A DNA stretch of 64,000 bases, from the NCBI GenBank assembly GCA_964373175.1, contig CAYJTP010000004.1, positions 6,651 to 70,650 of the forward strand. Direction: 5' to 3'. This document shows, piece by piece, positions 11,053 to 57,408 of this stretch. The notes below the pieces were generated by a model. The model was not told the origin of the DNA. It saw only the letters and a list, made by a program, of their open reading frames with translations, and made no database searches. The stretch is from an uncultured Planctomycetales bacterium (GTDB taxonomy: Bacteria > Omnitrophota > Gorgyraeia > Aquiviventales > Aquiviventaceae). Positions within the stretch are counted from its first letter, which is position 1. Every line of letters starts with the position of its first letter. Both the position numbers and the translations under genes were made by a program.

Positions 11053-11331
11053 TCAGACCAGAGACTTGAGACATGAGACTTGAGATCTGTGACTTCCTTG
11101 TCTCTTGTCTCTTGTCTCTTGTCTCTTGAACGCTCCGCCCCCCACGAACTGAACGATCTCCACCTGATCTCCCGCCTTGAGCACCGTTGAGGGCAGTTGG
11201 TCCCGTTTGAGGATCGTGAGATTCACCTCAACCACCACCCGTTCCGGCCGAATGGCGAGCTGCTCCAAGAGCTGGGCCGCCGTGAGCCCCTCGGCCACGT
11301 CTCGCCGCTGTCCATTCACCACTAACTCCAT
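11053..11331 (-). CDS. thiS: ThiS/MoaD-family sulfur-carrier protein. The 66-aa core ends …VQFVGGG and is followed by a 26-aa tail encoded by the heptamer repeat.
   Basis: MELVVNGQRRDVAEGLTAAQLLEQLAIRPERVVVEVNLTILKRDQLPSTVLKAGDQVEIVQFVGGG matches the ThiS pattern. No stop follows GGG. The frame continues as AFKRQETRDKRQG… through gagacaagagacaag repeats to a TGA at 11053. Confidence 0.6.
   Translation of the reverse strand: MELVVNGQRRDVAEGLTAAQLLEQLAIRPERVVVEVNLTILKRDQLPSTVLKAGDQVEIVQFVGGGAFKRQETRDKRQGSHRSQVSCLKSLV
11062..11135. repeat. Heptamer-repeat element (GACAGAR/GAGACAAG family), copy a
   Basis: cttgagacatgagacttgagatctgtgacttccttgtctcttgtctcttgtctcttgtctcttg, located between the thiS core and the topA start. 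Confidence 0.8.
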
Positions 11332-11438
11332 CCCGTGAGACTTCCTTCACAGTGTGCGTGTCGACTCAACGCATCGTCGTATGCATAACGCCGCGCTTCG
11401 TTCCATCGAGTCGTTGGGAAGAAGTCTAACGGGATCCA

Positions 11439-12560
11439 TCAACACGCCTTGAGAAATTGTTTACCCGGCAATTGCTTGACGAGCCGTTTCAGCTCGAGCT
11501 GTAACAACGCCGACGCGCACGTCGAGACTGCCAAGCCGGTCTTTGCCACGATCGCATCAAGGTTGCACGGCTCATCCGAGTGAAGCTGATTGAGCAACAT
11601 GCGCTCGTCTGGAGCCAACGCGCTGAGGGCTCGATCTGCCTCAGCCGAGAGCGGTTGAGCTGGACGACCCGCGCAAACCACGCGTGCTTCGAGGTGAAGT
11701 TCTTCGAGGATGTCCTCAACGCAGGTCACCAGCTTGGCACCTTGTTTTAGCAACTGGTGCGTGCCTTGCGAGGTCACTGAGTCAACCTTGCCGGGCACTG
11801 CAAAGACTTCACGACCCTGCTCCAGCGCGCAGTCTGCGGTGATGAGCGCTCCGCTGCGGTTGGACGCTTCGACGATGACGACGCCAAGTGACAGGCCGCT
11901 CACCAACCGGTTTCGCCGTGGGAAATTCTGGGCGAGCGGCGCCATCTGCATCGGATACTCGGACAGCACAGCCCCGTGGGCCGCGATCTGCTCAGCCAGT
12001 TTCTCATGTTCTGGGGGGTAGATTGTCGAGAGCCCGTTTCCTAAGACCGCCAACGTCCGGCCATTCGCTTTGAGCGCGCCTCGGTGTGCAGCTCCATCGA
12101 TGCCCCTCGCAAGGCCGGAGACAACCGTCGCGCCTCGAAGTGCCAGGTCATACGCCAGCCGCTCAGCCACCTGCTGCCCATAGAGGGAGGCGCGCCGGGA
12201 GCCGACCATGGCGATCGCCGTGCGATCCGCCTCGGTCAGGTGGCCTTTCACATAGAGCACAAGTGGGGGATCGTGAATCTGCCTGAGCAACTCAGGAAAC
12301 TCAGCATCCAGTTGCGTCACGATGGTACATCGGGCTTGGTTGACCAAGCGAAGCTCTTCCTGAAGACCCTTCGTCTCGCGCAAGCCGGTCACCAGGCGCC
12401 TCGCCAAGACCGGTCCGATCCCCTCCACCTGCTTGAACTGTTCCTCCGATGCGGCAAACAGTTCACGCAACGTCCCGAATGCCTCGAGGAGCCGCTTGAC
12501 CCGCAGCGTCCCGATATCCGGGACCAGATTCAACAGGATCAATCGCTCGCGATCATCCAT
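11439..12560 (-). CDS. dprA: DNA processing protein DprA (Smf)
   Basis: Rossmann-like DprA core …IAMVGSRRASLYGQQVAERLAYDLALRGATVVSGLARGIDGAAHRGAL… plus a C-terminal winged-helix domain. Confidence 0.9.
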   Translation of the reverse strand: MDDRERLILLNLVPDIGTLRVKRLLEAFGTLRELFAASEEQFKQVEGIGPVLARRLVTGLRETKGLQEELRLVNQARCTIVTQLDAEFPELLRQIHDPPLVLYVKGHLTEADRTAIAMVGSRRASLYGQQVAERLAYDLALRGATVVSGLARGIDGAAHRGALKANGRTLAVLGNGLSTIYPPEHEKLAEQIAAHGAVLSEYPMQMAPLAQNFPRRNRLVSGLSLGVVIVEASNRSGALITADCALEQGREVFAVPGKVDSVTSQGTHQLLKQGAKLVTCVEDILEELHLEARVVCAGRPAQPLSAEADRALSALAPDERMLLNQLHSDEPCNLDAIVAKTGLAVSTCASALLQLELKRLVKQLPGKQFLKAC

Positions 12561-12589
12561 GGATTAGACTCAAGCTTTCTTCCAAGCCG

Positions 12590-12800
12590 CCTCGAATTGT
12601 GGATCGTCGATTGCGCCCGTCCCGGCTCTGAGACTCAACGGCGGGCCGGGGAATTGCGGATTGACCGACGAACCACTCCGCAATCCCTGCCCGCCATGAG
12701 AAGCGAGGGGCAGGCGGGGAAAATCCCTGCCCGCCACGCGGAACATGGGGCAGGCGGGCAAAATCCACAATCCCTGAGGTGTTGAAGCTAGCTCTAAGCA
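12590..12800. repeat. Array of GC-rich palindromic REP-like hairpin units (CCCTGCCCGCC-N10-GGGGCAGGCGGG family). A related unit lies at ~1080-1160.
   Basis: aatccctgcccgccatgagaagcgaggggcaggcggggaa / aatccctgcccgccacgcggaacatggggcaggcgggcaa plus a gaattgcgga…tccgcaatcc hairpin. The same cccgcctgcccc…gggcgggcaggg hairpin and the shared motif ccggctctgRgaYt..acggcgggccgggg occur at 1080-1160. Confidence 0.75.
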
Positions 12801-12884
12801 TACCACACGACGAAAACAGCAGACAAGGCACCCCGGGCAAATGGCAAGACAAGGACCGGCGTGGTCGCAAGATCCTCGAGGGCG

Positions 12885-13334: not shown

Positions 13335-13461
13335 CCCCCCACCTATCTATCAAGGCGGCTATGAGGAGAGAGAAACCGCCGTGCGAAGCCGCCTTGATCA
13401 ACCTGTGTTGTTCCGTCGAACGAGTCCGCTGACAGCGGACTCGAGATAGATGGGGGGACCA

Positions 13462-14181: not shown

Positions 14182-14184
14182 AGC

Positions 14185-14258
14185 TCAGAGGTCAGAAGAC
14201 AGAGGACAGAAGACAGAATACAGATGACAGGTCAGACCAGAGACAAGAGACATGAGAC
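14185..14258. repeat. Heptamer-repeat element, copy b
   Basis: gtcagaagacagaggacagaagacagaatacagatgacaggtcagaccagagacaagagacatgagaccagagat, between the aroK start and the upstream gene stop. Confidence 0.8.
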
Positions 14259-14264
14259 CAGAGA

Positions 14265-15542
14265 TTAAGGCGCATGTGTCGAGGTTGGTTGCTCCGGTGT
14301 CGCTGCCGCGAGGGCTTCCGGTGGTATGGTGATTTCGATTGGAAGGTTATGGTCGCTAAAGTCCACTGTGTTTTCGAATAAAAATTTCACGTTTTCATTT
14401 TTAGGAGGCGTACCAACTAGCTCCGCAAAGGGCCAACTCTGAATCGTTAGTCTCTTCAGAATTCCTTCTCCCTTTACATGGTCTCTCACAAGAAAATAGC
14501 TGTTTGAATCGATCCACTGCTCAGATATAAAATCAGTAACAACCAGGTTATCTTGGAATGTCGGTAGACTCTCTGGCGTATCGAGCAACCCTTGTAGTAT
14601 TTTCGCAACTCTTTGAAGACCACCGAATTTCTGCCTCACAAGGTAGCATTCCTTACCCTCCAATAAGACTTGTGCAATCTCCGCATTAGCAAATTCAGTT
14701 ATAGCGGTTTGTTTTCCCTCTGGCAACCTACCACTCGCCAAGGTTACCAAATCTTCTGGACGTTCACTAATGAATAGGTCAACTAAAGTGATCTTTCCTT
14801 CGCCCAACATATTCCAAAACTCTGCCACCCCTTTCGCGGTTTCCTCACCGGAAATTTTCTCCCAGCTTCCCAAAAAATTATGGAGCACAGCAGTCTCTGT
14901 GAAATAAATGTCTCTTTTCCTTCGCATCTCCTGTTCCACTACATTTATATCCAGTAATTGGAGGAGGTGTTGCTTTTGATCCGGCTTGAGGTTTAGGTTT
15001 TGTAGGACCTTTTGTCTCTCTTTTTGAAACAGCTCCTTAGCAAATTCACTCTCATGCCGAAGAACCTGATAGGATGCATGGTATCTCTTAGCATCAGCAC
15101 TACCAGCCCCTTCGCCTCTTGCTTCAAGATCAGTAAGGCCTTCGATTGATAAGGTGGTTTGGGCTACTGCCTTAATAGTCCGTATGGCTTTATTTACCCT
15201 CTCATATTTTGTGACGATCTCTTGAGGATCTGGAATCGGGCCGGGTTCTGAAACCTTGGTATCTTGCGTTGCCACAGGAGGCGTTTCAGATATCTTTGTC
15301 CCTGTCTCTGGAGGAGAGCTTGCCTCGATATGGGCGATGGATTCTTTCGCGTAAGGGATCGTTGTCCCACTGGAAACTTCAACTTCGACGGCGGAGTCCG
15401 TCATCTTCACAATTTTTCCCTCAATGACCTTGCCATCCTTGAAGTGGATTTTTTCAGCAAACGCCTCCTCTGACCAAAGAGCTGTGAGCATGACCACAAC
15501 CCACGCTCCCCACCATTTCCAGTCTCTTGTCTCTTGTCTCAT
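14265..15542 (-). CDS. Hypothetical secreted protein (N-terminal signal peptide). The gene has low GC (~45%) and is probably horizontally acquired.
   Basis: Signal-like MRQETRDWKWWGAWVVVMLTALWSEEAFA|EK, then a KIHFKDGKVIEGKIVKMTDSAVEVEV small beta-rich motif. No recognisable catalytic motif. Composition is markedly AT-richer than its neighbours (runs of aaa/gaa codons). Confidence 0.6.
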   Translation of the reverse strand: MRQETRDWKWWGAWVVVMLTALWSEEAFAEKIHFKDGKVIEGKIVKMTDSAVEVEVSSGTTIPYAKESIAHIEASSPPETGTKISETPPVATQDTKVSEPGPIPDPQEIVTKYERVNKAIRTIKAVAQTTLSIEGLTDLEARGEGAGSADAKRYHASYQVLRHESEFAKELFQKERQKVLQNLNLKPDQKQHLLQLLDINVVEQEMRRKRDIYFTETAVLHNFLGSWEKISGEETAKGVAEFWNMLGEGKITLVDLFISERPEDLVTLASGRLPEGKQTAITEFANAEIAQVLLEGKECYLVRQKFGGLQRVAKILQGLLDTPESLPTFQDNLVVTDFISEQWIDSNSYFLVRDHVKGEGILKRLTIQSWPFAELVGTPPKNENVKFLFENTVDFSDHNLPIEITIPPEALAAATPEQPTSTHAP

Positions 15543-15552
15543 GTCTCTCGTC
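15512..15552. repeat. Heptamer-repeat element, copy c
   Basis: cagtctcttgtctcttgtctcatgtctctcgtct. It also supplies the first codons (MRQETRD) of the secreted-protein ORF. Confidence 0.7.
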
Positions 15553-15698
15553 TAAAACTGCTCGAGTTGGCGCAGGTAGCCGTGATAGTTGCGCTTGAGT
15601 TCGCGCAAGGAATCACCGCCAAACTTCTGGAGGATTGCATTGGCCAGTTCGAAGGCGACCATCGCTTCGCCGATCACCCCGGCCGCGGGCATGGTATT
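15552..15698 (-). pseudogene. Duplicated, diverged 3' fragment of aroC (49 codons). It is the relic of the original aroC end displaced by the MntA/HepT cassette.
   Basis: Minus-strand translation gives [49 protein letters not shown]. The intact aroC C-terminus is …[46 protein letters not shown]. Nucleotide identity is ~80% over ~150 bp (15550-15700 against 16337-16487). Confidence 0.85.
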
Positions 15699-16042
15699 CA
15701 TCGCGAGGCGCCACCCAGCAGTTCTTTGGCGGCTTCTTCAAGGCCAGAGAGCTTGTGCTGAACAACATCCCACACGACCTCAACGTTGATGCCGAAATAT
15801 TCATGGATTAAGATGTCCCGTAATCCGGCGATCTTTCTCCACTCGATATGAGGCTTCCGGCTGCGGGCATCCTCCGGCAGACGCTTCACGGCTTCGCCAA
15901 TGACTTCGAGATTCCGGACCACGGCATCCAACGTTTTCGCATCGTTCGACAGGGCGGCGACGGACATACCGCCTGTGAATTCCCGAATCTTTCGAATCGC
16001 CTCAAGGATGTCTTCGAGATAGACCTGAGGGTCCCGTGGCAT
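15698..16042 (-). CDS. hepT: HepT-like toxin (DUF86 / RX4HXY nuclease) of a HepT/MntA type II TA pair
   Basis: …[23 protein letters not shown]… contains the R-x4-H-x-Y motif. ~110 aa, immediately downstream of the cognate nucleotidyltransferase gene. Confidence 0.85.
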
Positions 16043-16322
16043 AAACCGTTTCCTTTAAAATGCCCTCCCGCAACCTCGGCTTAATCGTATCCGCCAACAC
16101 GAGATCGACGGAACATCGAAACAGGTCTTCCAGAAAAAATTTCAGGTTCATGTAGGCATCGAAGCTGTTGTGTTCAAGCTCGACGAGGAAGTCCAGGTCG
16201 CTGCCCGCACCTCCTTCATCGCGGGCGATGGAGCCAAAGAGGCCGAGTCGCCGAACGCCAAGTTGTCGGAGAGCCTGTTGGTTGTCTCGTAGACGTTTCA
16301 AGACCTCTTCTCGAGTCTTCAT
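16002..16322 (-). CDS. mntA: MntA-like minimal nucleotidyltransferase antitoxin
   Basis: GS-x9-DxD nucleotidyltransferase motif (LGLFGSIARDEGGAGSDLDFLVEL). It overlaps the hepT start, as is usual for this TA family. Confidence 0.85.
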   Translation of the reverse strand: MKTREEVLKRLRDNQQALRQLGVRRLGLFGSIARDEGGAGSDLDFLVELEHNSFDAYMNLKFFLEDLFRCSVDLVLADTIKPRLREGILKETVYATGPSGLSRRHP

Positions 16323-16338
16323 CGCATCATCTCCTCAC

Positions 16339-17493: not shown

Positions 17494-18290
17494 AAGATTT
17501 GAATCGTCTCCTCAATGCCAGTTCTCTGGATCAGCAGAGATCCGCTAAAGAGGGACAGGACGAGCGCCAACGAGAGAAAGGGCCCATACGGAATCACGTG
17601 TGACCGTTTCCACAACAGCACCCCCACACCCGGGATCAGGGCGAGGACTGGAGCGATGAAAAACGTGAAGGTCACCAGTTTCCATCCCAGGATTGACCCC
17701 GCCATCGCCAGCAATTTCACGTCCCCCCCACCCATGGCCTCTTTGCGAAACAAGACGCTTCCAAGCGCCCCGGTTGTGTACAACAACCCTCCCCCCACCG
17801 CCGCGCCAAGGAGAGCACGCTTCAGGGAGACCAAGGCGTGGTCGGTCCCATGAAGGTGGGGGACGAGCAGGCTGAGCAACAGTCCGATGATGAGTCCCCC
17901 GACACTGATTTCATCAGGAATGATCTGGTGCTCCAGATCAATGAAGCTCGCCACCAGGAGCGCCCACACGAACGCCAGATAGATCACCCCAACAACCCCC
18001 ACCCCAAAATGATGGAGCACGGCAACCGTCGACAAGCCACTCAAGGCTTCCACGACGGGGTAGCGCCAGTGGATCGTCGTGTGGCAATGCCGACACCGGG
18101 CGCCAAGCGCCAGGTAACTGAGGATCGGGATGTTGTCATACCACGCGATGGGGCGCTGGCACTGCGGACAGTGCGACCGCGGGTGGATGATCGACTCCTC
18201 GCGAGGCAACCGATAAATGCAGACATTAAGGAAACTCCCCACCATTGCTCCGAGGACGAACCATATCATCCACATCAGTCCATAGTCCAT
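17466..18290 (-). CDS. pilD: Prepilin peptidase / type IV leader peptidase (peptidase A24)
   Basis: N-terminal Cys-rich region (CPQCQRPIAWYDNIPILSYLALGARCRHC) plus multi-TM body with the catalytic Asp region (…GGGDVKLLAMAG…). It overlaps aroC by 28 nt. Confidence 0.85.
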   Translation of the reverse strand: MDYGLMWMIWFVLGAMVGSFLNVCIYRLPREESIIHPRSHCPQCQRPIAWYDNIPILSYLALGARCRHCHTTIHWRYPVVEALSGLSTVAVLHHFGVGVVGVIYLAFVWALLVASFIDLEHQIIPDEISVGGLIIGLLLSLLVPHLHGTDHALVSLKRALLGAAVGGGLLYTTGALGSVLFRKEAMGGGDVKLLAMAGSILGWKLVTFTFFIAPVLALIPGVGVLLWKRSHVIPYGPFLSLALVLSLFSGSLLIQRTGIEETIQILWSLVGWRA

Positions 18291-18356
18291 GGTCCATAGT
18301 CCATAGTCAACAACGAGGTTGCCGGTGGACCATCGACGATTGACTATGGACTATCG
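18279..18356. repeat. Tandem TCCATAGTC/TCCATGGTC octamer repeats (x4) with a downstream inverted copy (gactatggactatcgac).
   Basis: gtccatagtccatggtccatagtccatagtc…gactatggactatcgactg. It spans the aroE-pilD spacer and supplies the pilD initiation codons (ATGGACTATGGACTG = MDYGL). Confidence 0.7.
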
Positions 18357-19259
18357 ACTGCGTGTACGAAGCGCCTGCTCTACCGCCCGGCGCATCACGT
18401 CAATCGGCGGCGGCCGATGCCACCACAGCCTGAATGACTCGGCTCCTTGGTATACTAACATCGGAAGTCCATCCACCGCAAGCGCCCCGCGCCGTCTGGC
18501 CTCCAGCACCAGCTTCGTCGTTGGGGCGCGATAGACCAGGTCGACCACCACCAGCCCCTTGCGAATGGTGCGCGGGGGAACCGGAAGCGGATCGCCGAGG
18601 CGAAGCCCCAGACTCGTCGCATTCACCAGCAGGTCGACCTCCTGAAGACGCCGTCCAATCGCCCGGCGCTCGAAGGGAATCGTCGTCAGCTCGAGGCGCT
18701 CGTGTGTCCCCTGCCGTGATGCGGCACGTCGTAACCACCGGATGAACCTGTTCGTATGCGCCGGTGTGCGGTTCGCCACCGTGATGCGCTCAGGAACCGC
18801 TTGCGTCAGCACCCACCCCACCGCTCGGGCCGCTCCTCCCGTCCCTAAGAGCAGAATGCGTTTCCCCCGACTATGCCAGTGGAGCGCTTCACGGAGCACC
18901 TGACGAAATCCGGCGACATCGGTGTTATACCCGATGAAGCGGCTGCCCTTGCGAACCAGGGTATTCACAGCCCCAACGACCGAGGCCGACTCATCAAGGT
19001 CTGTCCGTGGATTCAACGACCGCATGATCCGCTCTTTGTGCGGAACGGTGATATTCAACCCATCAATGCCGGCCGCTGCTAAACCCTGAAACACCGGGCC
19101 AAGGACTCGGGGCGGGACTTCGAACGGCGCATAGATGGCATCCAGCCCAAGGGCGTCAAAGGCCGCCGTATGCATGAGGGGAGACAGGCTGTGACTGATC
19201 GGGTAGCCGACCACCCCGAAGACACGCGTCATTGGAACGTGGCACGGGGCATGAGACAA
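18351..19259 (-). CDS. aroE: Shikimate dehydrogenase
   Basis: …VFGVVGYPISHSLSPLMHTAAFDALGLDAIYAPFEV… and an NADP-binding GTGGAARAV motif. The likely true start is the internal Met (MTRVFGVV, ~19232). Confidence 0.85.
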   Translation of the reverse strand: MSHAPCHVPMTRVFGVVGYPISHSLSPLMHTAAFDALGLDAIYAPFEVPPRVLGPVFQGLAAAGIDGLNITVPHKERIMRSLNPRTDLDESASVVGAVNTLVRKGSRFIGYNTDVAGFRQVLREALHWHSRGKRILLLGTGGAARAVGWVLTQAVPERITVANRTPAHTNRFIRWLRRAASRQGTHERLELTTIPFERRAIGRRLQEVDLLVNATSLGLRLGDPLPVPPRTIRKGLVVVDLVYRAPTTKLVLEARRRGALAVDGLPMLVYQGAESFRLWWHRPPPIDVMRRAVEQALRTRSR

Positions 19260-19318
19260 GGGGCAAGGGGATTATGCGGGGCTTTCTGCCCCACGCCCCG
19301 TGTCTCACGCCCCATATT

Positions 19319-20902
<1,584 letters not shown>

Positions 20903-20997
20903 GGAATGTCTCGACTAAATCAGGGGCGAGGGACGTGGGGCACGGGGCGTGGGCTCTCTGAGGCCGCCTTCGCCCCCTGTCTCCTGCCCCTTGCCCC

Positions 20998-21248: not shown

Positions 21249-21252
<4 letters not shown>
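20998..21252 (-). CDS. Hypothetical small acidic protein (84 aa). Its start overlaps the ilvC stop (ATGA).
   Basis: ORF only, with no recognisable motif. Its position inside the ilvC-leuA operon and the 4-nt overlap suggest it is real. Confidence 0.4.
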
Positions 21253-22367
<1,115 letters not shown>

Positions 22368-26694: not shown

Positions 26695-27120
26695 GTTTCG
26701 TGACCCGTGATTCGTGGCTCGTGACCCGTCAGAGACTATGAATGAGTCTGACAAGCATGCGAGTTTCGTGGTTCACGGCTTCTGCGATGATCTGCATTTG
26801 CGGTGGATGCACATATCTCCTTCTTTGAGCGATAATCAACAATGTGTCCAACTCAGCACACGAACCTAACGAGACGTAAAGATGCTGCTGGTACTCCTTG
26901 GTATGGTGCCTGACAAAGCCTTCAGCGATATTCGTTGGGATTGACACGGCCGCACGTCTCATCTGACTGCTTAACCCATACATCTCCGATTGCGGAAAAG
27001 TCTCTGTCAGTTCGTAAACCAGACCGACGATTTCAACACCTTTTTGCCACACTTGAAGATCTTTATAGTCCTTCACCTTCATCGGCAGTTTACGGATCAC
27101 GGGTCACTGGTCACGAGTCA
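26695..27120. mobile_element. Low-GC cassette carrying a four-helix-bundle gene, flanked by inverted repeats built from GTGACCCGTGA units
   Basis: Left flank ttcgtgacccgtgattcgtggctcgtgacccgtcag. Right flank cggatcacgggtcactggtcacgagtcacggc, which is the reverse-complement arrangement. The enclosed gene is ~48% GC against ~62% for its neighbours. Confidence 0.55.
26729..27100 (-). CDS. Four-helix-bundle protein of the 23S rRNA intervening-sequence protein family
   Basis: 123 aa. …WQKGVEIVGLVYELTETFPQSEMYGLSSQMRRAAVSIPTNIAEGFVRHHTKEYQQHLYVSLGSCAELDT… matches this family as recalled. Confidence 0.7.
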   Translation of the reverse strand: MIRKLPMKVKDYKDLQVWQKGVEIVGLVYELTETFPQSEMYGLSSQMRRAAVSIPTNIAEGFVRHHTKEYQQHLYVSLGSCAELDTLLIIAQRRRYVHPPQMQIIAEAVNHETRMLVRLIHSL

Positions 27121-27613
27121 CGGCAAGTTTCTGGACCAGTTGGGATGAACGGGGCCCGTGGCTGATCGCCGCGATGGTCCGCTGGTTGGTCGTCCGATGG
27201 GTCAGGTAGATTTCGAGGTAGTCCTCTGGGAGACAGCCGCTGAATCGATCCGCCCACTCAATCACCGTCGCCTTCTTTGACGAGAACACCCATTCCAGGT
27301 CCAACCAGACGGCGGAGGCCGCGCCCTCCAACCGATACCCGTCGATATGGATCAGGGGGAGGCGTCCTTGATGCTCGCGTAAGAGGATAAAGGTCGGGCT
27401 TTTCACGCCTCCCGGATCGATGCCAAGCCCTTTCGCGATCCCTTGCACGAAGGTCGTCTTGCCACTGCCCAGTTCCCCCACCAGACCCACCACATCCCCC
27501 TGTGCCAGGAGCTCGCCGAGCCGCTCGCCGAGTTGGTGGGTCTCCTCCACCGAGCGGCTGATCAGTTCAAAAATGTTTGAAGCCTTTTGGGATGAGCGAG
27601 GTGATGCGGCCAT
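27104..27613 (-). CDS. tsaE: tRNA threonylcarbamoyladenosine biosynthesis ATPase TsaE (YjeE)
   Basis: Walker A VVGLVGELGSGKTTFVQGIAKGLG. ~160 aa. Confidence 0.85.
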   Translation of the reverse strand: MAASPRSSQKASNIFELISRSVEETHQLGERLGELLAQGDVVGLVGELGSGKTTFVQGIAKGLGIDPGGVKSPTFILLREHQGRLPLIHIDGYRLEGAASAVWLDLEWVFSSKKATVIEWADRFSGCLPEDYLEIYLTHRTTNQRTIAAISHGPRSSQLVQKLAVTRDQ

Positions 27614-35814: not shown

Positions 35815-35915
35815 TCAGAGGACAGAAGTCAGAAATCAGAAGACAGATCAACGCTAAACACACCGGAGGGTCTATTCTGATTTCTGTCCTCTGCCATCTG
35901 TCCTCTGGTACCTCC
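35815..35915. repeat. Heptamer-repeat element, copy e: inverted pair forming a long hairpin between ispD and ispF
   Basis: cagaggacagaagtcagaaatcagaagacaga…(loop)…tctgatttctgtcctctgccatctgtcctctg. Confidence 0.8.
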
Positions 35916-39274: not shown

Positions 39275-39372
39275 ACTTCGCGATCAGAAGACAGAGGTCA
39301 GAAGTCAGAGGACAGGCGCGGCCGAGCTTATTGGGTACCTGTCTTCTGTCGTCTGTCTTCTGTCTTCTGTCC
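39275..39372. repeat. Heptamer-repeat element, copy f: inverted pair or hairpin between mlaD and radA
   Basis: gatcagaagacagaggtcagaagtcagaggacagg…ctgtcttctgtcgtctgtcttctgtcttctgtcc. Confidence 0.8.
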
Positions 39373-46491: not shown

Positions 46492-46666
46492 CCTCTTACT
46501 AGTCTAGCAGGTTTTCAACGGGAGGCAAAGTGGGCGCCTGTTAGAGCTGGTTCCACAACCTCCCGTGGCTGTGGGCTGGGGGCTGTGGGCTCTGGGCACG
46601 GGCGACAGACGACCCCGAGCCCCGAACCCTGAGCCCTCAGCCGAGAAACGGGTTTGAAAGATGCTG

Positions 46667-47578: not shown

Positions 47579-47610
47579 CCCCGTTGTGCCCGTTAGGTCC
47601 GTTGTGCCCG

Positions 47611-48318
47611 TTAACCGGCTAACCCGCTAACCGATGCCTGTCCTTTGACGTCCGAGACAAACTGCCCGTCCCGCAGCACCAGCCACCGATTGGCGAGCTG
47701 CGCCAGCTCATGCTCATGCGTCACCAAGACCAAACTTACGCGTTCCCGTCGCTGCAACTCCACGAGCAACCCCGCCACGGCTTGGCCCGTCTGCGAATCG
47801 AGATTGCCGGTTGGCTCATCGCAAAAAATGATCTTCGGATGATTGATGAGGGCGCGGGCGATGGCCACCCGCTGGAGCTCTCCCCCGGAGAGCTGGCCAG
47901 GCTTGTGCGTTGCCCGGCTCAAGAGCCCGACATGATCGAGGCAGCGACGCGCCCCTGCTTCAAGATCCCGTCGCCCGCGATGCCCGTCCACCAACCCCGG
48001 CAACATGACGTTTTCAAGCGCGGAGAGCTCCGGCAGCAAATGATAGAACTGGAACACAAACCCAATCGTGCGGTTGCGAAGGTTCGCCCGCTCCCGATCG
48101 TTCATGCGCACAAGCGATTTGCCTTCCCACAAGACTTCCCCCTCCGACGGCAGATCCAAGCCCGCTAACACATGCAGCAGCGTTGATTTCCCCGCGCCGG
48201 ATGGCCCGGTGATGGCGATAAACTCACCCGCAGCAATCGTCAGGTCCACACCCTTGAGGACGTGGAGTGCAACTGCCCCTGTTTGATACACCTTGTGTAA
48301 ATTGCGCGCTTCAATCAT
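47611..48318 (-). CDS. lolD: Lipoprotein-releasing system ATP-binding protein LolD
   Basis: Walker A GPSGAGKSTLLH, signature LSGGELQRVAIARAL, Walker B IIFCDEPTGNLD. MacB/LolD-type. Confidence 0.85.
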   Translation of the reverse strand: MIEARNLHKVYQTGAVALHVLKGVDLTIAAGEFIAITGPSGAGKSTLLHVLAGLDLPSEGEVLWEGKSLVRMNDRERANLRNRTIGFVFQFYHLLPELSALENVMLPGLVDGHRGRRDLEAGARRCLDHVGLLSRATHKPGQLSGGELQRVAIARALINHPKIIFCDEPTGNLDSQTGQAVAGLLVELQRRERVSLVLVTHEHELAQLANRWLVLRDGQFVSDVKGQASVSGLAG

Positions 48319-48401
48319 GGATCCGTTGAGCCCGTTGGCCTGTTTGCCCGTGAGGCCAGTGAACCGGCCAACTGGCTAACGGGCTAACTGGCATAACGGA
48401 C

Positions 48402-49583: not shown

Positions 49584-49628
49584 CTCAGACTTCAGACATG
49601 AGACAAGAGACTAGAGACATGAGACTTA
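49577..49628. repeat. Heptamer-repeat element, copy g
   Basis: tctcagacttcagacatgagacaagagactagagacatgagactt, between the lolC start and the low-GC membrane gene. Confidence 0.75.
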
Positions 49629-50066: not shown

Positions 50067-50073
50067 TTGCAGG

Positions 50074-51582
50074 TCACTCAGGTTTCAACAAGGGAAATAA
50101 AATCACATCCTTGATTGAAGGCTGGTCGAACAAGAGCATCGCTAATCGGTCGACCCCAAGGCCCAACCCTGTGGCCGGCGGCATGCCGTATTCCAGTGCC
50201 TCAAGAAAGTCTTCGTCAACCATTCGGGGGGGCGAGGGGCGTGGGGCACGGGGCGAGGATCGGGTTTTCCCTCGCCCCCGGTCTCCCGCCCCCTGCCCCT
50301 GTTCCTTTAATTGCGCTTCAAACCGTCGTCGCTGCTCAATCGGATCATTCAATTCCGAGTAGGCGTTGGCGACCTCAAAACCCCCGATGAACAGCTCAAA
50401 CCGCTCCGCGATGAGTGGGTTGTCCAGCCGGCTTTTCGCCAAGGGTGAGAGCTCGGTCCAGTAGTCCGTCACAAAGACCGGCACGTCCTTGGTCTTGGGT
50501 TCCACGAGCTGCTCCACGACATGGAGGATCTGGGAGCGTGTCTGGGCTTTGAGCTCGACCTTCGGAAATCCCGACTTCGGCGCTTTCAACTTGCGCTGCA
50601 TCGCTTCAAGTCCATCTTGAGGACCCAAGTCGTAGCCGGTCTTGAGCAGCTCAGTGAATGAGATGATTTCCCAGTCTTTGGCCAAATCGATTGCCTGGCC
50701 TTGATAGGTCAATTGCAACCGTCCCAGCGTGTGCGTCGCGGCCCCCCGGATGAGTTCTTGGACCAACTTCATCATGTACGTGTAGTCCTCATAGGCGCAG
50801 TAGGCTTCGAGCATCGTAAATTCAGGATTGTGTTTGGTGGAGAGCCCTTCGTTGCGAAACGATCGGTTGAGCTCATAGACCTTCTCAAAGCCGCCCACGA
50901 GCAGTTTCTTGAGATACAGCTCCGGAGCGAGGCGCAGATACAGCTCACACCCCAACGTCTGATGATGGGTGACAAACGGCTCGCCCGTCGCCCCGCCTGG
51001 GATCGGATGCATCATGGGCGTTTCGACCTCGAGGTAGCCGTGCGCGTTGAGCGTGGAGCGCAGGCTGTCAAGCAGCCGGGTGCGCTGCTCGAATGCCCGA
51101 CGGACGGGCTCATTCGCGATGAGATCCAGATACCGTTTGCGATAGCGGATCTCCACGTCGCGCAGCCCATGCCATTTCTCCGGCAGGGGTTTCAGCGACT
51201 TTGCCAGCAAGGTGAAGCGGCTGACCTGAATGGTGATCTCGCCGGTCTTGGTTTGGCACAACCGGCCTTCCACCCCAAGGCAATCCCCGAGATCGATGTT
51301 GTCAAAGAGCTGATAGGCGGCCTCGCCCAGTTGCTCTTGGCGAAGGCACAGTTGGATCTTGCCGCTTGCGTCACGAAGATCCGCGAAGGTGAGTGCGCCG
51401 TGAGAACGTTTGGCGCTCAGGCGACCGGCGGTCGTGACCGTTTCGCCGTCGTGGAAGTGCTCCACCAACCACTGGATGGATCGGGTCTTGGGAAACTTGC
51501 CCCCATATGGCTGGATGCCGTGTGAGCGCAACGTGTCGCGGTGCTTTCGTCGTGCGGCTGTAAGCTCATCATAGGTACCCAT
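50074..51582 (-). CDS. lysS: Lysyl-tRNA synthetase (class II) carrying an in-frame ~25-aa palindromic-element insertion near the C-terminus
   Basis: OB-fold anticodon-binding N-terminus, class II motifs (…FRNEGLSTKHNPEFTMLE…), then …RRRFEAQLKEQGQGAGDRGRGKTRSSPRAPRPSPPRMVDEDFLEALEYGMPPATGLGLGVDRL… E. coli has …[37 protein letters not shown]…. Confidence 0.95.
   Translation of the reverse strand: MGTYDELTAARRKHRDTLRSHGIQPYGGKFPKTRSIQWLVEHFHDGETVTTAGRLSAKRSHGALTFADLRDASGKIQLCLRQEQLGEAAYQLFDNIDLGDCLGVEGRLCQTKTGEITIQVSRFTLLAKSLKPLPEKWHGLRDVEIRYRKRYLDLIANEPVRRAFEQRTRLLDSLRSTLNAHGYLEVETPMMHPIPGGATGEPFVTHHQTLGCELYLRLAPELYLKKLLVGGFEKVYELNRSFRNEGLSTKHNPEFTMLEAYCAYEDYTYMMKLVQELIRGAATHTLGRLQLTYQGQAIDLAKDWEIISFTELLKTGYDLGPQDGLEAMQRKLKAPKSGFPKVELKAQTRSQILHVVEQLVEPKTKDVPVFVTDYWTELSPLAKSRLDNPLIAERFELFIGGFEVANAYSELNDPIEQRRRFEAQLKEQGQGAGDRGRGKTRSSPRAPRPSPPRMVDEDFLEALEYGMPPATGLGLGVDRLAMLLFDQPSIKDVILFPLLKPE
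50226..50302. repeat. GC-rich hairpin element (GGGGCGAGGGGCGTGGGGCACGGGGCGAGG … CCTCGCCCCCGGTCTCCCGCCCCCTGCCCC) inserted in frame in lysS
   Basis: Read directly. It is translated as QGQGAGDRGRGKTRSSPRAPRPSPP. Related non-coding copies at ~20920-21000, ~31330-31400, ~40925-41000 and ~19250-19320. Confidence 0.75.
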
Positions 51583-51812: not shown

Positions 51813-53381
51813 TTACGTTGTCCTAACCCTGTGTTTGACGAGGGGTTGGAACCAGAGCCATCCAAAGGCCACCACAAGACACAGCCACGCAAACCAGTCT
51901 CCCCACCTGGCATACAGGGTGTGAGACTGACTCGGCTGCACGTCGCAGACCGAAAACCCCTCAACAAAGAGCTCCTTGCCCTTCGAGTTCTGGACGCTGG
52001 CCTGCCAACGGCCGGTTTCATCAATGCAGCCGGACCAGCCGGTGTTGGCCGCACGGATCATCGGCACGCGCAGTTCCACGGCTCTGAACGCCGAGGCTTG
52101 TGCATGCTGGTACGCGGCCGCCGTATCGCCAAACCACGCGTCGTTGGTGATCGTAACCAACATCTGAGCTCCCCGGTTGACAAATTGTCGAGCCAACCCT
52201 GGGAAGATGTCTTCGAAACAGATCAACACACTAAAGCGGGGCGGGGGGCGGGGGGCGGGGGGCGGGGAAACCAACTCATGCCCGTGCCCCACGTCTCTCG
52301 CCCCATGCCCCTCCACGTCAAATACGGTGTACTCATGGCCTGGCACAAAGTTGCCGATCGGCGGCAAGACTCCCCGCAGCCACGGAAAGACTGACTCCAG
52401 AGGGATGAATTCCCCGAAAGGCACCAGATGAAGCTTGTCGTACCGTGTCAGGATGGCTCCCTCGGCATCCAGCAACACGGCGCTATTCGTCAGATACCAC
52501 GTGCCGTCCCGCAAGACACCCATCGGCGCACCGACCAACAAGGGCGTCTGGATCGATTGGGCCAATTGCTTGATCTGCATCGTCATCTGAGCATCTAAAC
52601 CAACATAGCCGGGTACCGAGGTTTCCGGCCACACGATAAGCTGCGGGTGGTGGCGAGCCGCTTCGTGCGTGAGCCGTTCATAGCGCTCAACAATGGACTG
52701 CTGAAACGCCTCGTCCCATTTTTCCTCTTGGGGGATGTTGCCTTGGACGACGGCGATCTTGAGCGGTGTGGTGGGAACAAACTGCTGAAGACGCGCTTTG
52801 CCATACGCCCAGCTTGCAACCACACAACCAAGTGCCAGGGTCATCATGGGAATGACGCGGTGCGCCTCACGCTGGCTCAGATAGCTCGCAATCGCCACAT
52901 TCACCATGACCAGCAGAAACGACACGCCCCAGACACCAGTTACGTCAGCGACTTGGATGGCCGTCAATGCTGGTGTCTGCGAATAGCCCAGGAGGTTCCA
53001 TCCAAAACCCGAGAGGAGATGACTACGCAGGTACTCAAGCGCAACCCACGCAGAGGGAATAAGAAGGTGATGGGTGATGGGTGATGGGTGATGGGTGAAC
53101 TTATGAGCGAGCCAGCCAAATACGCCGAAAAAGAGCGCGAGGTATGCGCAGAGCAGGGTCAATCCCACAAGCGTCACATGCACAAGCCACCAAATGGTGC
53201 CAAGGAAAAACACAAGCCCGACGAGATACGACCAGCCAAATGCTTGCCGCGGGCTCAGCGTCTGCAGACTGATCAGCCATGGGACCAGCGCCACCCACGC
53301 GCACCACGGCTGGTTCCAGTTCGGGAAAGAGAGAGCCAGCAGGACGGCGCTACTCAGCGCCAGGAGGAGCGATTGCAACAC
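51813..53381 (-). CDS. lnt: Apolipoprotein N-acyltransferase carrying an in-frame ~23-aa GC-rich element insertion in the CN-hydrolase domain
   Basis: N-terminal multi-TM region plus CN hydrolase domain (…IAVVQGNIPQEEKW…, …VLICFEDIFP…). Insertion …VFDVEGHGARDVGHGHELVSPPPAPRPPPRFSVLICFE… The start is read as GTG at 53379-53381. Confidence 0.85.
   Translation of the reverse strand: MLQSLLLALSSAVLLALSFPNWNQPWCAWVALVPWLISLQTLSPRQAFGWSYLVGLVFFLGTIWWLVHVTLVGLTLLCAYLALFFGVFGWLAHKFTHHPSPITHHLLIPSAWVALEYLRSHLLSGFGWNLLGYSQTPALTAIQVADVTGVWGVSFLLVMVNVAIASYLSQREAHRVIPMMTLALGCVVASWAYGKARLQQFVPTTPLKIAVVQGNIPQEEKWDEAFQQSIVERYERLTHEAARHHPQLIVWPETSVPGYVGLDAQMTMQIKQLAQSIQTPLLVGAPMGVLRDGTWYLTNSAVLLDAEGAILTRYDKLHLVPFGEFIPLESVFPWLRGVLPPIGNFVPGHEYTVFDVEGHGARDVGHGHELVSPPPAPRPPPRFSVLICFEDIFPGLARQFVNRGAQMLVTITNDAWFGDTAAAYQHAQASAFRAVELRVPMIRAANTGWSGCIDETGRWQASVQNSKGKELFVEGFSVCDVQPSQSHTLYARWGDWFAWLCLVVAFGWLWFQPLVKHRVRTT
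52237..52316. repeat. GC-rich element (GGCGGGGGGCGGGGGGCGGGGGGCGGGG … CCCGTGCCCCACGTCTCTCGCCCCATGCCCCTCC) inserted in frame in lnt
   Basis: Read directly. It is translated as EGHGARDVGHGHELVSPPPAPRPPP. Same GGGGCRNGGGGCAC family as the lysS element. Confidence 0.7.
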
Positions 53382-53391
53382 GACTCGACGC

Positions 53392-53927: not shown

Positions 53928-53978
53928 CGAGTCTCACCTCCGCAATGAGTGTATCAGAAGTGATGAACTCTGTCAACA

Positions 53979-54062: not shown

Positions 54063-54111
54063 GGAGGAATTAGGGGGCGTCGGCGTAGGCAATCGTGGCG
54101 TATCCCGTGGA

Positions 54112-54168
54112 ACATTCAGTCTCTTGTCTCATGTCTGACATCTGTCCTCTGTCGTCTGACATCTGATT
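54112..54168. repeat. Heptamer-repeat element, copy h
   Basis: cagtctcttgtctcatgtctgacatctgtcctctgtcgtctgacatctg, immediately 3' of secA. Confidence 0.75.
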
Positions 54169-54172
54169 CCAA

Positions 54173-57100
54173 TCACTTCCCATGACACTTCTTGTACTTG
54201 AGGCCACTCCCGCATGGACAGGGGTCATTTCTTCCGACCTTCGGACCGGCGCGATGGTAGGGTGTGCCTTGTGATTGGTCGTTCTTCGCCCCTACTGGTT
54301 CAAGCACGCGTCGTGGCTGCTCGGCTTCGCTGGATGGCGTGGGAGGCGTTTGCGGCGCAAACCGATCCGCTAATCGCGTCGAGAGCTCTTCATGAACGGC
54401 CTGCTGGGGCGTACGGGCAAACACGCTCACAGGTTGGGCCTCAGCTCGTGGTTGGATGCGCAGGAGCATCATGAGCGATTCGGCTTTGACCGAGGCGATC
54501 ATATCCTGGAACATCGCGTAGGCTTCATGCTGGTATTCGACGAGCGGGTCGCGCTGGCCATAGGCTCGAAGGCCGATGCCTTCCCGGAGCGCATCCATCA
54601 TGTAGAGGTGATCCTTCCACTTCGCATCGACGACGGCCAGCAGGACACTGCGCTCTAGGCTCCGCATCAGCTCAGGGCCGATGGCCTGCGCCTTGGCCTG
54701 ATAGGCCTGCTTCAGGCTCTCGCTGAGCTGCTCGAAGAGCGCGTCACGGACAGGCGACGTGAGGTCAATGGATTGGGTCACGACGAACTGCCGCACGAGG
54801 GTCGTACGCAGGCCCTCCAGATCCCAGGCGTCCGGACGCGACTCTTTGGGGGCGTAACTCGTCACCAACTCATCGGCCACTTCCTCAGCGATCTCCCCGA
54901 CCAAGGTGTCCAGCCCAACCCCATCGAGGATGCGGCGCCGCTGCTCATAGATGACTTCGCGCTGGCGATTCATGACGTTGTCGTACTCCAAGAGATGCTT
55001 GCGCGCATCGAAGTTCTGGGCCTCGACCCGTCGCTGGGCGGTCTCGATCGACTTGGTCACCCACGGATGCTCAATCGGTAATCCCTCCTCCCAGCGAAAC
55101 CACTTGAACTCCATGAGCTTCGCAATCCGATCCGAACCGAAGATGCGCATGAGGTCGTCTTCGAGCGAGAGGTAGAACCGCGAGGAACCGGGATCGCCCT
55201 GCCGGCCGGATCGCCCGCGCAGCTGGTTATCGATGCGGCGGGCTTCGTGGCGCTCGGTCCCGAGGACATGCAGGCCTCCGACGGCAACGACCTTCTCGTG
55301 CTCGTCATCGGCTTGGCGCCGATACTGTTCAAGCAGCGCGCCTCGGTCCTCGTCAGACGCCGCGGTCCCTTGCGCTTCTCGCTCGCGGATGGCGTCCTCG
55401 CAGAGAAATTGGGGATTGCCGCCCAGGAGGATGTCGGTGCCGCGACCCGCCATGTTCGTCGCGATCGTCACCGCCCCCAGCCGCCCGGCCTGCGCGACGA
55501 TGCGCGCTTCTTGCTCGTGGTACTTGGCGTTGAGCACGTTATGCGGGATTCCTGTTTTGACGGCGGTCATCGTCTGGACGAGTCGCAGGAGTTGTTCCAG
55601 ACGATAGACCATGAGGGACTTGGGGGCTTGCGACTTGAGCTGGTCCAAGAGGACTGTCGCCGCCTCCTCGGTGATGGTCCCGGGGCGGCTCGCGAGCTGC
55701 GAGAGCTGCTGCTTGAGCGGTCCAGGAAGCTGTTCGGATTTCAGTTCCTCGGTCACCCACTGGCAGATCGTACTCAGCCGTTTGAGGAACGGGCCTGGTT
55801 CTTTGAGCATCCGCGAGAGCCGCTCGGATTTCTCAATCGAAATGGTTCCCACCAGGACGGGCTGGCCCCTGCGATGGAGCTCAGCAATTTCTTCCACCAC
55901 GGCGAGGAACTTTTCCGCTTCGGTCTTGTAGACGATGTCGGGGTGGTTAGCGCGGATGAGCTGGCTGTTGGTCGGAATGGTGACGACGTCGAGGTGGTAG
56001 ATCTCGCGAAACTCCTGCGCTTCAGTGGCGGCCGTACCGGTCATGCCGGCCAATTTCTCATACATCCGGAAGTAGTTCTGGAAGGTCACCGAGGCGAGGG
56101 TCTGGTTTTCTTCGCGGATCCGGACGTTTTCTTTCGCTTCGATCGCTTGATGGAGCCCATCGCTCCAGCGGCGGCCCGGCATGAGCCGACCCGTGAACTC
56201 ATCGACAATGATGATCTCCCCGTCCTTGACCATGTAGTCCACATCGCGCTTGAACAGCTCGTGAGCGCGCAGGGCCTGGTTGATGTGATGCACCAGGCGC
56301 ATGTTCAGCTCGTCATAGAGGTTCTCCACCCCAAGGAGCTCTTCAGAGTGCTTGATCCCATCCTCGGTGAGGGTCACCGCATGTTGCTTCTCGTCGACCT
56401 CGTAGTGGGTGCCTTTGGTCAAGCGCTCAACCACCTTGTCCAACCGGTAGTACAGCTCGGTGGACTCCTCGGCGGGTCCGGAGATGATCAGGGGGGTGCG
56501 CGCTTCATCAACCAGGATGCTGTCGACCTCATCGACAATCGCAAAGTGAAACTCCCGTTGGACAAGATCCTCGCGGCGATGGCGCATGTTGTCGCGCAGG
56601 TAATCAAAACCGAACTCGTTGTTCTGCCCGTAGGTGATCTCCGCGGCGTAGGCGGCCCTTCGGCTGACCGGTCGCAGGTGGATGAAGCGCTCGGAGGCCT
56701 GGGTGAAGGTCGGATCGTAGAGGAAGGAGAGGGATTCCTCGCCGGCCAGACGCTCGGCGGGGTCCACGCCTTGGATGACCCCGACGGACAATCCCAGGGC
56801 ATGGTAGATCGGCCCCATCCAGCGCGTGTCGCGTCGTGCCAGATAGTCGTTGACCGTCACGATATGGACCCCGCGACCCGTCAAGGCATTGAGGTACGCT
56901 GCCAACGTGGCCACAAGGGTTTTCCCTTCCCCGGTGGCCATCTCGGCGATCTTGCCCTCATGGAGCGCCATGCCCCCAAGGAGCTGGACATCGAAGTGGC
57001 GCATGTTGACGGTCCGACGAGCCGCTTCACGCACTACGGCAAAGGCTTCAGGGAGGAGCTCGTTGAGCGCTCGATCCTGGATCTTGCGCCGCTCCTGCCT

Positions 57101-57349
57101 GCGTTTCAGTCGCTCATCATGGCCAAGCTCATACCACTCGGGGCTGCTCGGATCAATAAACTGGAAGGACTCAAGAGATTTGCGCAGGCGGGCTCGCAGC
57201 TCCTCGGTTTTGGCGCGTAACTGGTCGTCGGAGAGCTTCTGGACATCTGGCTCAAGGCGATTAATGCGCTCGACCACGGGTGCGAGCCGCTTGAGCTCCC
57301 GTGCGCTCTGCGTCCCGAGCAGCTTTTGGAGAATCCACGTGACCATCAT
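54173..57349 (-). CDS. secA: Preprotein translocase subunit SecA
   Basis: DEAD-like motor motifs (…[20 protein letters not shown]…), preprotein cross-linking domain, and C-terminal zinc-binding [14 protein letters not shown]. 1058 aa. Confidence 0.95.
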
Positions 57350-57408
57350 CAGATGACAGACATCAGACCACAGACGTCAGACGACAGAAAACAGAGGACA
57401 GAACATGG
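57348..57408. repeat. Heptamer-repeat element, copy i
   Basis: catcagatgacagacatcagaccacagacgtcagacgacagaaaacagaggacagaac, between the prfB stop and the secA start. Confidence 0.75.

Follow-up and report, generated by a model that had tools for sequence, protein, structure and literature searches.

Heptanucleotide repeat arrays and hairpins with intervening-sequence architecture at operon junctions of an uncultured Omnitrophota bacterium

The short tandemly repeated repetitive (STRR) sequences of Calothrix PCC 7601 are tandem heptanucleotides and were first reported in 1990. To our knowledge, neither these repeats nor the general excess of heptamers in bacterial genomes have an accepted origin or function, and we likewise know of no role for the S23p (PF05635) proteins, whose family counts its members in the thousands and has a solved structure (2GSC). 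S23p genes are carried by intervening sequences, which have been called selfish elements of unknown mobility. Here we describe arrays of tandem 7-nt units, and the hairpins which they form, in a 64,000-nt stretch of DNA (the window) from an uncultured Planctomycetales bacterium placed in the phylum Omnitrophota by GTDB (assembly GCA_964373175.1, contig CAYJTP010000004.1, positions 6,651 to 70,650). The arrays belong to the known class of heptanucleotide repeats, in a phylum for which our literature searches found no description of heptamer arrays. Their hairpin form has the architecture of an intervening sequence, mostly without an open reading frame (ORF), and lies at operon junctions.

A heptameric excess among bacterial simple-sequence repeats was reported in 2007 together with a polymerase-footprint slippage hypothesis (Mrazek and colleagues, cited by Rehm et al., PMC4692102), and the same paper records three tandem heptanucleotides in Calothrix PCC 7601. 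The heptamers GGGAATC and GGGGAYT are repeated in Xanthomonas and Nostoc, and Xanthomonas has 70-75 inverted pairs, the paired or single type being usually preserved between species (PMC4692102). TAACTGA repeats of marine Beggiatoaceae, cyanobacteria and Bacteroidetes lie just 5' of start codons without a Shine-Dalgarno sequence (PMC4679880). Intervening sequences of the 23S rRNA carrying S23p are known from Coxiella, Leptospira, Brucella and Xanthomonas (PMC4990558). In Coxiella the terminal inverted repeats pair into a 28-bp stem that RNase III cuts, and the element carries an S23p ORF with two to three copies of GACAGAT and one GACAGAA immediately 5' of its ATG; the 5' cut lies at the start of the first repeat, and the repeat copy number varies among strains (PMC4990558). 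A link between S23p and heptamers is described in the Coxiella paper for this one element (PMC4990558). No paper on a general link of S23p or four-helix-bundle genes with heptamer repeats was found in our literature searches, and S23p, four-helix-bundle genes and RNase III are not mentioned in PMC4679880 or in PMC4692102.

Period-7 arrays and hairpins in the window

Arrays were counted by comparing each base with the one a set number of positions further on, 12 matches in 14 being the minimum, and repeats with a unit of 1-3 nt were discarded. At period 7 the window holds 22 arrays; the other periods between 4 and 12 yielded 0-3 each, and block shuffles 0.25. A stricter lag cut-off left 15 arrays of period 7 and 0-1 for the other periods. 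The sequence GACAGARGACAGAR, with up to two mismatches, was matched 28 times, where 1.57 matches were expected and 100 shuffles gave a maximum of 5. A preliminary description of this DNA had listed at least nine copies of a GACAGAR element between co-directional genes. Tandem Repeats Finder placed a period-7 array at each of these nine sites. All lie at minus-strand gene boundaries, their tandem units are of the GACAGAR or AGACAAG type, and both orientations occur among them as described; the nine are real and form a subset of the 22. Assembly artefacts of low-complexity sequence, raised there as a caveat, are contradicted by array lengths of 21-57 nt (3-8 units), by flanks recovered in another assembly and by the presence of the same class on complete plasmids of cultured cyanobacteria.

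At least 12 distinct units are present in the window; GACAGAR and AGACAAG are the commonest two, and AGTCCAT, AGTCGAA, CGTGACC, GGGGCGT, GGGGCGG, GGTGATG, CCAAATT and GGAAAGT are among the others. When 30 related loci are added, 147 arrays contain 89 distinct units, with favourites that differ by genome. A single unit is found at 6-11 loci within one genome, where about 1,170 unit classes are possible. The one distinct family GACAGAR/GAGACAAG proposed earlier therefore gives way to a class whose conserved property is the 7-nt period, with units that differ at orthologous junctions. Nor is the motif lineage-specific, as had been suggested: exact arrays of three GACAGAR units were found in at least 120 metagenome stretches, GACAGAR-type units stand in the Coxiella intervening sequence, and the related GTCAGRA occurs on Nostoc and Aulosira plasmids. 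Eighty profiled GACAGAR contigs from metagenomes of many environments (L081-L160) span 32-72% G+C, a range that refers to this unit, the only one searched there. Selection of units as stop-free for read-through was considered and ruled out, since 95 units are stop-free on the sense strand and 96.9 were expected from permutation of each unit's own letters.

The arrays are concentrated at gene boundaries. Intergenic DNA and DNA within 75 nt of an ORF end make up 23.5% of the sequence and contain 82% of the arrays; inside ORFs the arrays are depleted five-fold. The earlier proposal of an enrichment at co-directional junctions is borne out for boundary against interior; its co-directional part says little, because every gene of the window lies on one strand (essentially all of the approximately 55 genes are on the minus strand across the 64 kb, at a G+C content of about 60%). 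Relative to the next start codon, 29 of 68 arrays end between -10 and +20 nt.

Nearly half of the arrays are paired. An inverted partner, no more than 150 nt away and matching in 12 or more of 14 bases, was found for 48% of the arrays in the window and related loci, compared with 2.7% in distant controls. Folding of seven pairs of the window gave energies between -35 and -55 kcal/mol and z-scores between -3.2 and -4.8. The two copies first recognized as inverted pairs, at 35815 and 39275, do fold into hairpins, at -44.1 kcal/mol each; hairpins are not limited to them, the pairs at 11061-11130 and 57347-57440 folding too. The loops of the GACAGAR and AGACAAG copies in the window measure 20-30 nt and hold no PF05635 ORF; decayed PF05635 genes were also considered for the 190-530-nt loops of ORF-less pairs, but the longest ORFs there were unlike PF05635 by eye, a family-model scan not having been made.

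The arms are polar relative to transcription. On the sense strand the mean purine content is 60% in the 5' arm and 38% in the 3' arm, and the 5' arm is the purine-richer one in 18 of 24 pairs (p 0.02), a count that is indicative only, since related species are not independent samples. Translated, the purine-rich arm gives tails of D, R, Q, K, T and E; the complementary arm would yield tails of F, L, C and S. Tails of this origin, previously noticed in IlvC, MlaD, IspD and ThiS, were confirmed in all four proteins, and three more were found in a release factor, HolB and TsaE. The IspD tail reads ...QRTDGRGQKSE up to the stop and that of ThiS ...GGGAFKRQETRDKRQGSHRSQV.... The ThiS ORF (11053-11331) extends 26 codons past its Gly-Gly end, through both hairpin arms; as a sulfur-carrier protein ThiS would need this 26-aa tail removed, or else the start/stop model would be wrong. 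The copy earlier assigned to the start of a secreted-protein gene does lie directly 5' of an ATG, and the gene (54173-57349) is secA.

The elements of the window are listed below; flanking genes were named by Pfam and junction sequences were read in the mRNA sense.

1153-1231, minus strand: array of four GGAAAGT units (1202-1231) in the last codons of a glycosyltransferase gene and a complementary stretch just downstream (repeat finder, lag-7 scan)
7869-7978, minus strand: inverted pair AGTCGAA / TTCGACC from the stop of an xerD-like gene to the start of a Kdo-transferase gene, the ATG 6 nt past arm 2 (-40.2 kcal/mol, z -3.4)
11061-11130, minus strand: inverted pair, in mRNA sense five AGAGACA units and then TCTCAAG-type units, both arms forming the ThiS tail, with the stop 8 nt 5' of the topA ATG (z -4.6)
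14186-14264, minus strand: two adjoining unpaired arrays, in mRNA sense four CTTGTCT and then five TTCTGTC units, together forming all of the spacer between the stop codon of an orphan ORF and the aroK ATG; unstructured (z 0.0)
15518-15553, minus strand: four AGACAAG units between the hepT stop and the orphan ORF, complementary to 14234-14265 at a distance of 1249 nt (repeat finder, complementarity)
18276-18359, minus strand: inverted pair AGTCCAT / ATGGACT between aroE and a prepilin-peptidase gene (-50.1 kcal/mol, z -4.8)
19236-19318, minus strand: G-rich arm of the GGGGCGT type and then a C-rich one, between leuA and aroE (repeat finder, junction reading)
20903-20997, minus strand: arm of the GGGGCAR type and then one of the CCCCACG type, between an 84-aa ORF and leuA (junction reading)
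21323-21379, minus strand: eight GACAGAR units, unpaired, translated within the basic C-terminal tail of IlvC (repeat finder, folding)
26698-26729, minus strand: 3' arm (mRNA CGGGTCA CGAGCCA CGAATCA CGGGTCA) from the PF05635 stop to the tsaB ATG (repeat finder)
26729-27082, minus strand: gene of the PF05635 / TIGR02436 four-helix bundle (S23p, "23S rRNA intervening-sequence protein") between tsaE and tsaB (family match)
27092-27123, minus strand: 5' arm (mRNA CGTGACT CGTGACC AGTGACC CGTGATC) overlapping the tsaE end (84% complementary over 25 nt to 26705-26729)
31328-31366, minus strand: five CCCCACG units (mRNA sense) forming the holB tail (DAPRPTPHAPRP up to the stop), with the metG ATG 5 nt past the stop (repeat finder, translation)
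35815-35907, minus strand: inverted GACAGAR-type pair, arm 1 forming the IspD tail, stop at the loop start, arm 2 abutting the ispF ATG (-44.1 kcal/mol, z -3.2)
39284-39373, minus strand: inverted GACAGAR pair, arm 1 forming the MlaD tail, stop in the loop, arm 2 ending 13 nt 5' of the radA ATG (-44.1 kcal/mol, z -4.3)
46567-46636, minus strand: inverted pair (GGCTGTG and CCCCGAG types) past the stop of a class IV aminotransferase gene, before a UVR-domain gene (-55.1 kcal/mol, z -4.1)
49585-49625, minus strand: unpaired AGACAWG array (six GTCTCWT units in mRNA sense) forming the entire spacer before the ATG of an FtsX/MacB-type permease gene (repeat finder, folding)
50227-50258, minus strand: GGGGCGA-type array inside lysS (lag-7 scan)
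52235-52269, minus strand: array of five GGGGCGG units inside lnt (lag-7 scan)
53064-53100, minus strand: array of five GGTGATG units inside lnt (lag-7 scan)
54112-54166, minus strand: AGACAAG-type and GACAGAR-type arrays directly past the secA stop (repeat finder)
57347-57440, minus strand: inverted pair, arm 1 (CCAGACATCAGACAGCAGCAA) forming the release-factor tail, stop in the loop, arm 2 (eight TTCTGTC-type units) abutting the secA ATG (z -4.7)
60671-60868, minus strand: CCAAATT and CACCAAT arrays with complementary TTGGTGA-type arrays, between uvrC and an HD-GYP-type gene (repeat finder)

The arrays inside lysS and lnt are C-rich in the mRNA sense and encode proline-rich stretches; in lysS and at the downstream array of lnt (52235-52269) the Pfam matches exceed their models by approximately 20-50 residues. 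The array class is not strictly heptameric, because a few hairpin arms have a period of 8-9. Arrays of that period (CCCGTTGTG and AACGGGCT types) form hairpin-like pairs at 47580-47632 and 48362-48399, in the leaders of aminotransferase and ABC-ATPase genes. A different, REP-like repeat at 12682-12766 consists of a 40-nt palindromic unit (GCCCGCCTGCCCC...GGCGGGCAGGG) in two tandem copies. An MNT/HepT toxin-antitoxin pair (15698-16322) and a 425-aa orphan ORF (14265-15542), whose sole database match is itself, sit between aroC and aroK, and inverted AGACAAG arrays (14234-14265 and 15515-15546) bracket the orphan ORF. Its status as cargo of an AGACAAG-bracketed cassette is unproven, because it has no homologue and because same-unit brackets also surround ordinary genes in relatives. 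The GC skew of the window is mostly negative to approximately 52 kb and near zero thereafter.

Orthologous junctions and PF05635 cassettes

The nearest homologues of the window IlvC are named Candidatus Omnitrophica, and a scan of species-representative genomes with IlvC gave 30 Omnitrophota-type loci and 50 loci from other phyla. The former contain 125 period-7 arrays in 387 kb, compared with 2-29 arrays for periods 5-10. Density is patchy within Omnitrophota, with 5-9 arrays per 10 kb in some genomes and almost none in others; array-rich loci also occur in some Caldilineales/Anaerolineales and Vicinamibacteria, and most other phyla are without arrays.

The comparison of orthologous junctions in relatives, recommended in the preliminary description, returned the same positions with different units, and some relatives nearly without arrays. 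Along the conserved holB...aroC gene order, arrays or pairs stand at the same junctions across species, the paired or single state of a junction tends to be conserved among relatives, and array copy number differs; array-poor relatives have tight or overlapping genes at the corresponding places. Directly past the IlvC motif MMPWIG an array is present in at least 15 species, with units that include GACAGAR, GCGACAA, AGTCCGT, GGTCGGA, CAGCAGT and GGGGCAG, and the ORF stays open to a shared end ARSRS, the DNA of which (GGCGAGGAGCC...TGA) abuts the next gene. IlvC of the Omnitrophota clade (window 21249-21400; L001-L038) thus carries a basic, low-complexity tail of 20-50 aa, mostly ending in ARSRS and the stop, whose frame is kept through arrays of differing units; more distant members (L022, L027) end at WIK.

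At the tsaE-tsaB junction four states were found: array-poor genomes have an overlap of the ATGA type, L008 and L018 a single array, L011 an empty hairpin, and the window a hairpin with a gene in its loop. The four states indicate that the elements are insertions into tight junctions, which turn over in sequence and keep their position. The gene in the loop encodes a PF05635 protein of 117 aa. PDB 2GSC, from Xanthomonas campestris, is matched at E 2e-23, and a weaker match is to the Avd protein of diversity-generating retroelements. The gene lies in sense orientation between CGTGACC-type arms, and the tsaE-PF05635-tsaB locus was recovered from three independent assemblies, with the same flanks in the one checked.

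Bracketed PF05635 genes recur elsewhere. A homologue search of all fetched DNA gave a bracketed copy directly past ilvC in a member of the Caldilineales (L052). PF05635 genes with GACAGAR arms were found at L090, L122 and L126, where only the gene adjacency is informative, because these loci had been chosen for their GACAGAR arrays. Close homologues are placed co-directionally in five different host operons (V-ATPase, hyp and others), and their flanks show CG or ACG phased every 7 nt, even on contigs with 0-3 arrays in approximately 20 kb. The arms therefore belong to the PF05635 cassette and travel with it.

A protein-versus-DNA search of 72,556 plasmids matched 27 records, at least 24 of them cyanobacterial and mostly from heterocyst-forming genera. 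In nearly all of 16 fetched plasmids inspected by eye, a purine-rich, 7-nt-periodic stretch lies 5' of the ATG, or a complementary pyrimidine-rich stretch lies past the stop, or both; some flanks are degenerate, more distant or direct in orientation. The four-helix-bundle genes of Nostoc and Aulosira plasmids are flanked by the GTCAGRA units mentioned above. In 50 kb of one Nostoc plasmid, 9 arrays occupy about 6 loci, and the sole PF05635 gene has one array on each side.

For statistics, one fixed threshold was applied to 24 PF05635 loci (from Omnitrophota, Caldilineales, Gemmatirosa, many cyanobacteria and metagenome contigs) and to 129 control ORFs from the same loci. A period-7 array within 70 nt was present at 17 of the 24 PF05635 genes and at 26 of the 129 controls (p 2e-6), arrays on both sides at 8 and 2 (p 4e-6), and complementary flanks at 15 and 7 (p 6e-10), p-values that are optimistic because loci of related species are not independent. 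The purine-richer flank was the 5' one at 19 PF05635 loci and the 3' one at 3.

PF05635 genes wedged into conserved operons were observed at L204, L214, L243, L245, L229, L230, L236, L225 and L224, co-directional save at the last site: between AC39 and F and between B and D of V-ATPase, in hypF...hypC, between cas6 and cas4 (Anabaena 90, Pseudanabaena), between cas10 and cmr3 (Picosynechococcus), between a ParA-like ATPase gene and parB, and, on the opposite strand, at nrdB-nrdA.

Origin and function of the elements

We read the copies as mostly ORF-less insertion elements of the intervening-sequence type in operon junctions, most likely sites of double-stranded RNA (dsRNA) processing or stability, with a rough probability of 0.55; the reading was adopted because the same design brackets PF05635/S23p genes. 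In the transcription direction a typical element consists of a purine-rich array, a short loop and a complementary pyrimidine-rich array, and it would be co-transcribed with its operon. Arm 1 often enters the end of the upstream ORF, giving a hydrophilic tail with the stop in or near the loop. In the polycistronic RNA the elements are predicted to fold into imperfect stems of 25-35 bp, most likely dsRNA sites for RNase III processing or stabilisation, and any effects on the translation of cistrons nearby would be secondary. Slippage and exchange between arms would account for the drift of array length and unit sequence. By analogy with the Coxiella stem, RNase III would cut the hairpin stems, and RNA processing, one of the two functions first suggested for the hairpins, is the best-supported candidate. 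The elements are presumably mobile, and the ORF-less copies may descend from PF05635 cassettes or be serviced by them.

A wider and far more tentative extension is that the bacterial heptanucleotide excess as a whole is the footprint of one ancient mobile family of intervening-sequence-type hairpins, in which the gene-carrying form would encode the PF05635 protein (Avd-related), this protein would recognise, process or propagate 7-nt-phased stems, and ORF-less hairpins at operon junctions would be miniature derivatives. Besides the arrays found here in Omnitrophota, Caldilineales and Vicinamibacteria, the family would take in the GGGAATC pairs known from Xanthomonas and the STRR of heterocystous cyanobacteria.

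Several observations weigh against the reading of the copies as intervening-sequence-type elements. No target-site duplication is visible at the tsaE-tsaB junction in comparison with empty sites among 14 genomes. The elements are dispensable, because nearly array-free relatives keep the same operons with overlapping genes. Ordinary host genes (ilvC in L077, aroE in L025) likewise stand between oppositely oriented arrays of one unit, which makes long-range bracketing alone weak evidence. Array loci outnumber PF05635 genes by about 25:1 in the window and about 6:1 in 50 kb of the Nostoc plasmid, and the unit of the ORF-less GACAGAR hairpins differs from the CGTGACC of the sole PF05635 cassette of the window. 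The unpaired arrays (IlvC tail, aroK leader, permease leader) are unstructured, with z near 0, and cannot form a stem. Rfam at the gathering threshold and a tRNA scan gave no match in the 64-kb window, hence no rRNA either, and the elements are therefore not intervening sequences in the strict sense. The choice of L090, L122 and L126 and the relatedness of the PF05635 loci, both stated above, point the same way.

A serious rival, which we consider possible without finding it probable, takes the arrays as neutral by-products of a 7-nt bias in replication slippage, the hypothesis of Mrazek and colleagues: they would arise everywhere but survive only where a frameshift is harmless (spacers and last codons), inverted partners would arise by quasi-palindrome template switching, and PF05635 genes would merely land in such spacers. 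The unit diversity (89 among 147 arrays), the depletion within ORFs and the absence of stop avoidance beyond base composition fit this explanation, as does the presence of the trait throughout a genome or not at all, relatives rich and poor in arrays having the same operons; copy number is variable among Coxiella strains as well (PMC4990558). However, a process acting on DNA only should be symmetric, and the arms are polar in 18 of 24 pairs and in 19 versus 3 PF05635 flanks. PF05635 cassettes keep their phased arms on otherwise array-poor contigs, and one unit at 6-11 loci per genome is not given by random picks among the possible classes. The paired or single state of junctions moreover tends to persist, also in Xanthomonas (PMC4692102).

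An improbable primary explanation, compatible with the preferred one as a secondary effect, is that of a translation leader or coupling device, in which the array would replace the Shine-Dalgarno sequence as a pyrimidine-rich pad for S1 or a cold-shock-type protein and a paired stem would be opened by ribosomes on arm 1. Arm 2 or a single array ends 0-13 nt 5' of the next ATG, and a Shine-Dalgarno-like tetramer (GGAG, GAGG, AGGA or AAGG) within 20 nt was found at 0 of 13 array-preceded starts and about 18 of 42 others, a rough count because the longest ORF defined each start. Of 8 pairs examined, 4 have an arm 1 that is translated as the tail of the upstream protein and a stop in the loop or beside it; the IlvC tails of different species remain open as far as a stop abutting the next start, and the TAACTGA repeats of Beggiatoaceae offer a parallel (PMC4679880). 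But the stop codon precedes arm 1 in 3 of the 8 pairs, some arrays stand within genes or past the final gene of a run, and purine-rich as well as pyrimidine-rich arrays precede starts; the 7-nt period and the link to PF05635 would be left unexplained.

Contingency (phase-variation) loci, at which the gain or loss of one 7-nt unit would shift tail frame or spacing and switch expression, are very unlikely: one unit of 7 nt is not a whole number of codons, relatives differ in copy number as do Coxiella strains, and the repeat-driven switching of a Haemophilus gene is reported (PMC12721329) to depend on an RNase III-targeted RNA element of the 5' untranslated region, but the arrays are short (3-8 units), stand beside housekeeping genes (ilvC, secA, topA, metG) and not beside surface or restriction genes, and leave the end frame of the IlvC tail the same across species. 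Intrinsic terminators or attenuators punctuating transcription, the other function first suggested (as composite terminators), are scarcely credible for these strong hairpins between genes, since none is followed directly 3' by a T-run, start codons coming next instead, none is among the terminator-like sites of a scan of the window, and hairpins lie within conserved operons, e.g. ispD-ispF and tsaE-tsaB.

Comparison with known systems

In at least five phyla, heptamer arrays and S23p/PF05635 genes appear here combined in a single architecture, and the published RNase III cleavage of the Coxiella stem offers a concrete, testable mechanism for the operon-junction hairpins. For the annotation of uncultured genomes it matters that arrays extend ORFs into spurious-looking tails (IlvC, ThiS, MlaD, IspD, release factor), remove Shine-Dalgarno motifs and insert small genes into otherwise conserved operons.

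With REP (repetitive extragenic palindromic) and BIME (bacterial interspersed mosaic) elements and with MITEs (miniature inverted-repeat transposable elements) the elements share a small, palindromic, intergenic form within operons, and those elements can stabilise or process mRNA. They differ in having no conserved consensus, unrelated flanks and loops, a unit that varies between copies, no visible target duplication, and arms built of tandem 7-nt units. The TAACTGA repeats are likewise heptamer arrays (2-6 units) a few nucleotides from the starts of genes without Shine-Dalgarno motifs, some overlapping the end of the upstream ORF, and are patchy in phylogenetic distribution; there, however, the unit is fixed, its orientation is mostly the same and 170 sets include one inverted pair, whereas the present arrays have many units and both orientations, and half of them are paired.

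The STRR and the heptamers of Xanthomonas and Nostoc agree with the present arrays in their tandem 7-nt units, the excess of period 7, the mostly intergenic location, the frequent inverted pairs, a conserved location with length and sequence varying among relatives, and a paired or single type that is usually preserved. In contrast to one named unit there, many units per genome are found here, in tight spacers, where arrays run into ORF ends and abut start codons, with arms that are polar relative to transcription.

Like the 23S rRNA intervening sequences, the elements have terminal inverted repeats which form a long stem around a loop, and copy number varies. As in Coxiella, heptamers stand in the 5' arm, GACAGAT and GACAGAA agreeing with GACAGAR at 6 or 7 of 7 positions, and in the window cassette the PF05635 ORF lies in the loop, in sense, directly past the purine-rich arm. 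Unlike those intervening sequences, the elements described here occupy operon junctions of mRNA and not helix 25 or 45 of the 23S rRNA, most copies are ORF-less, and the unit differs from element to element.

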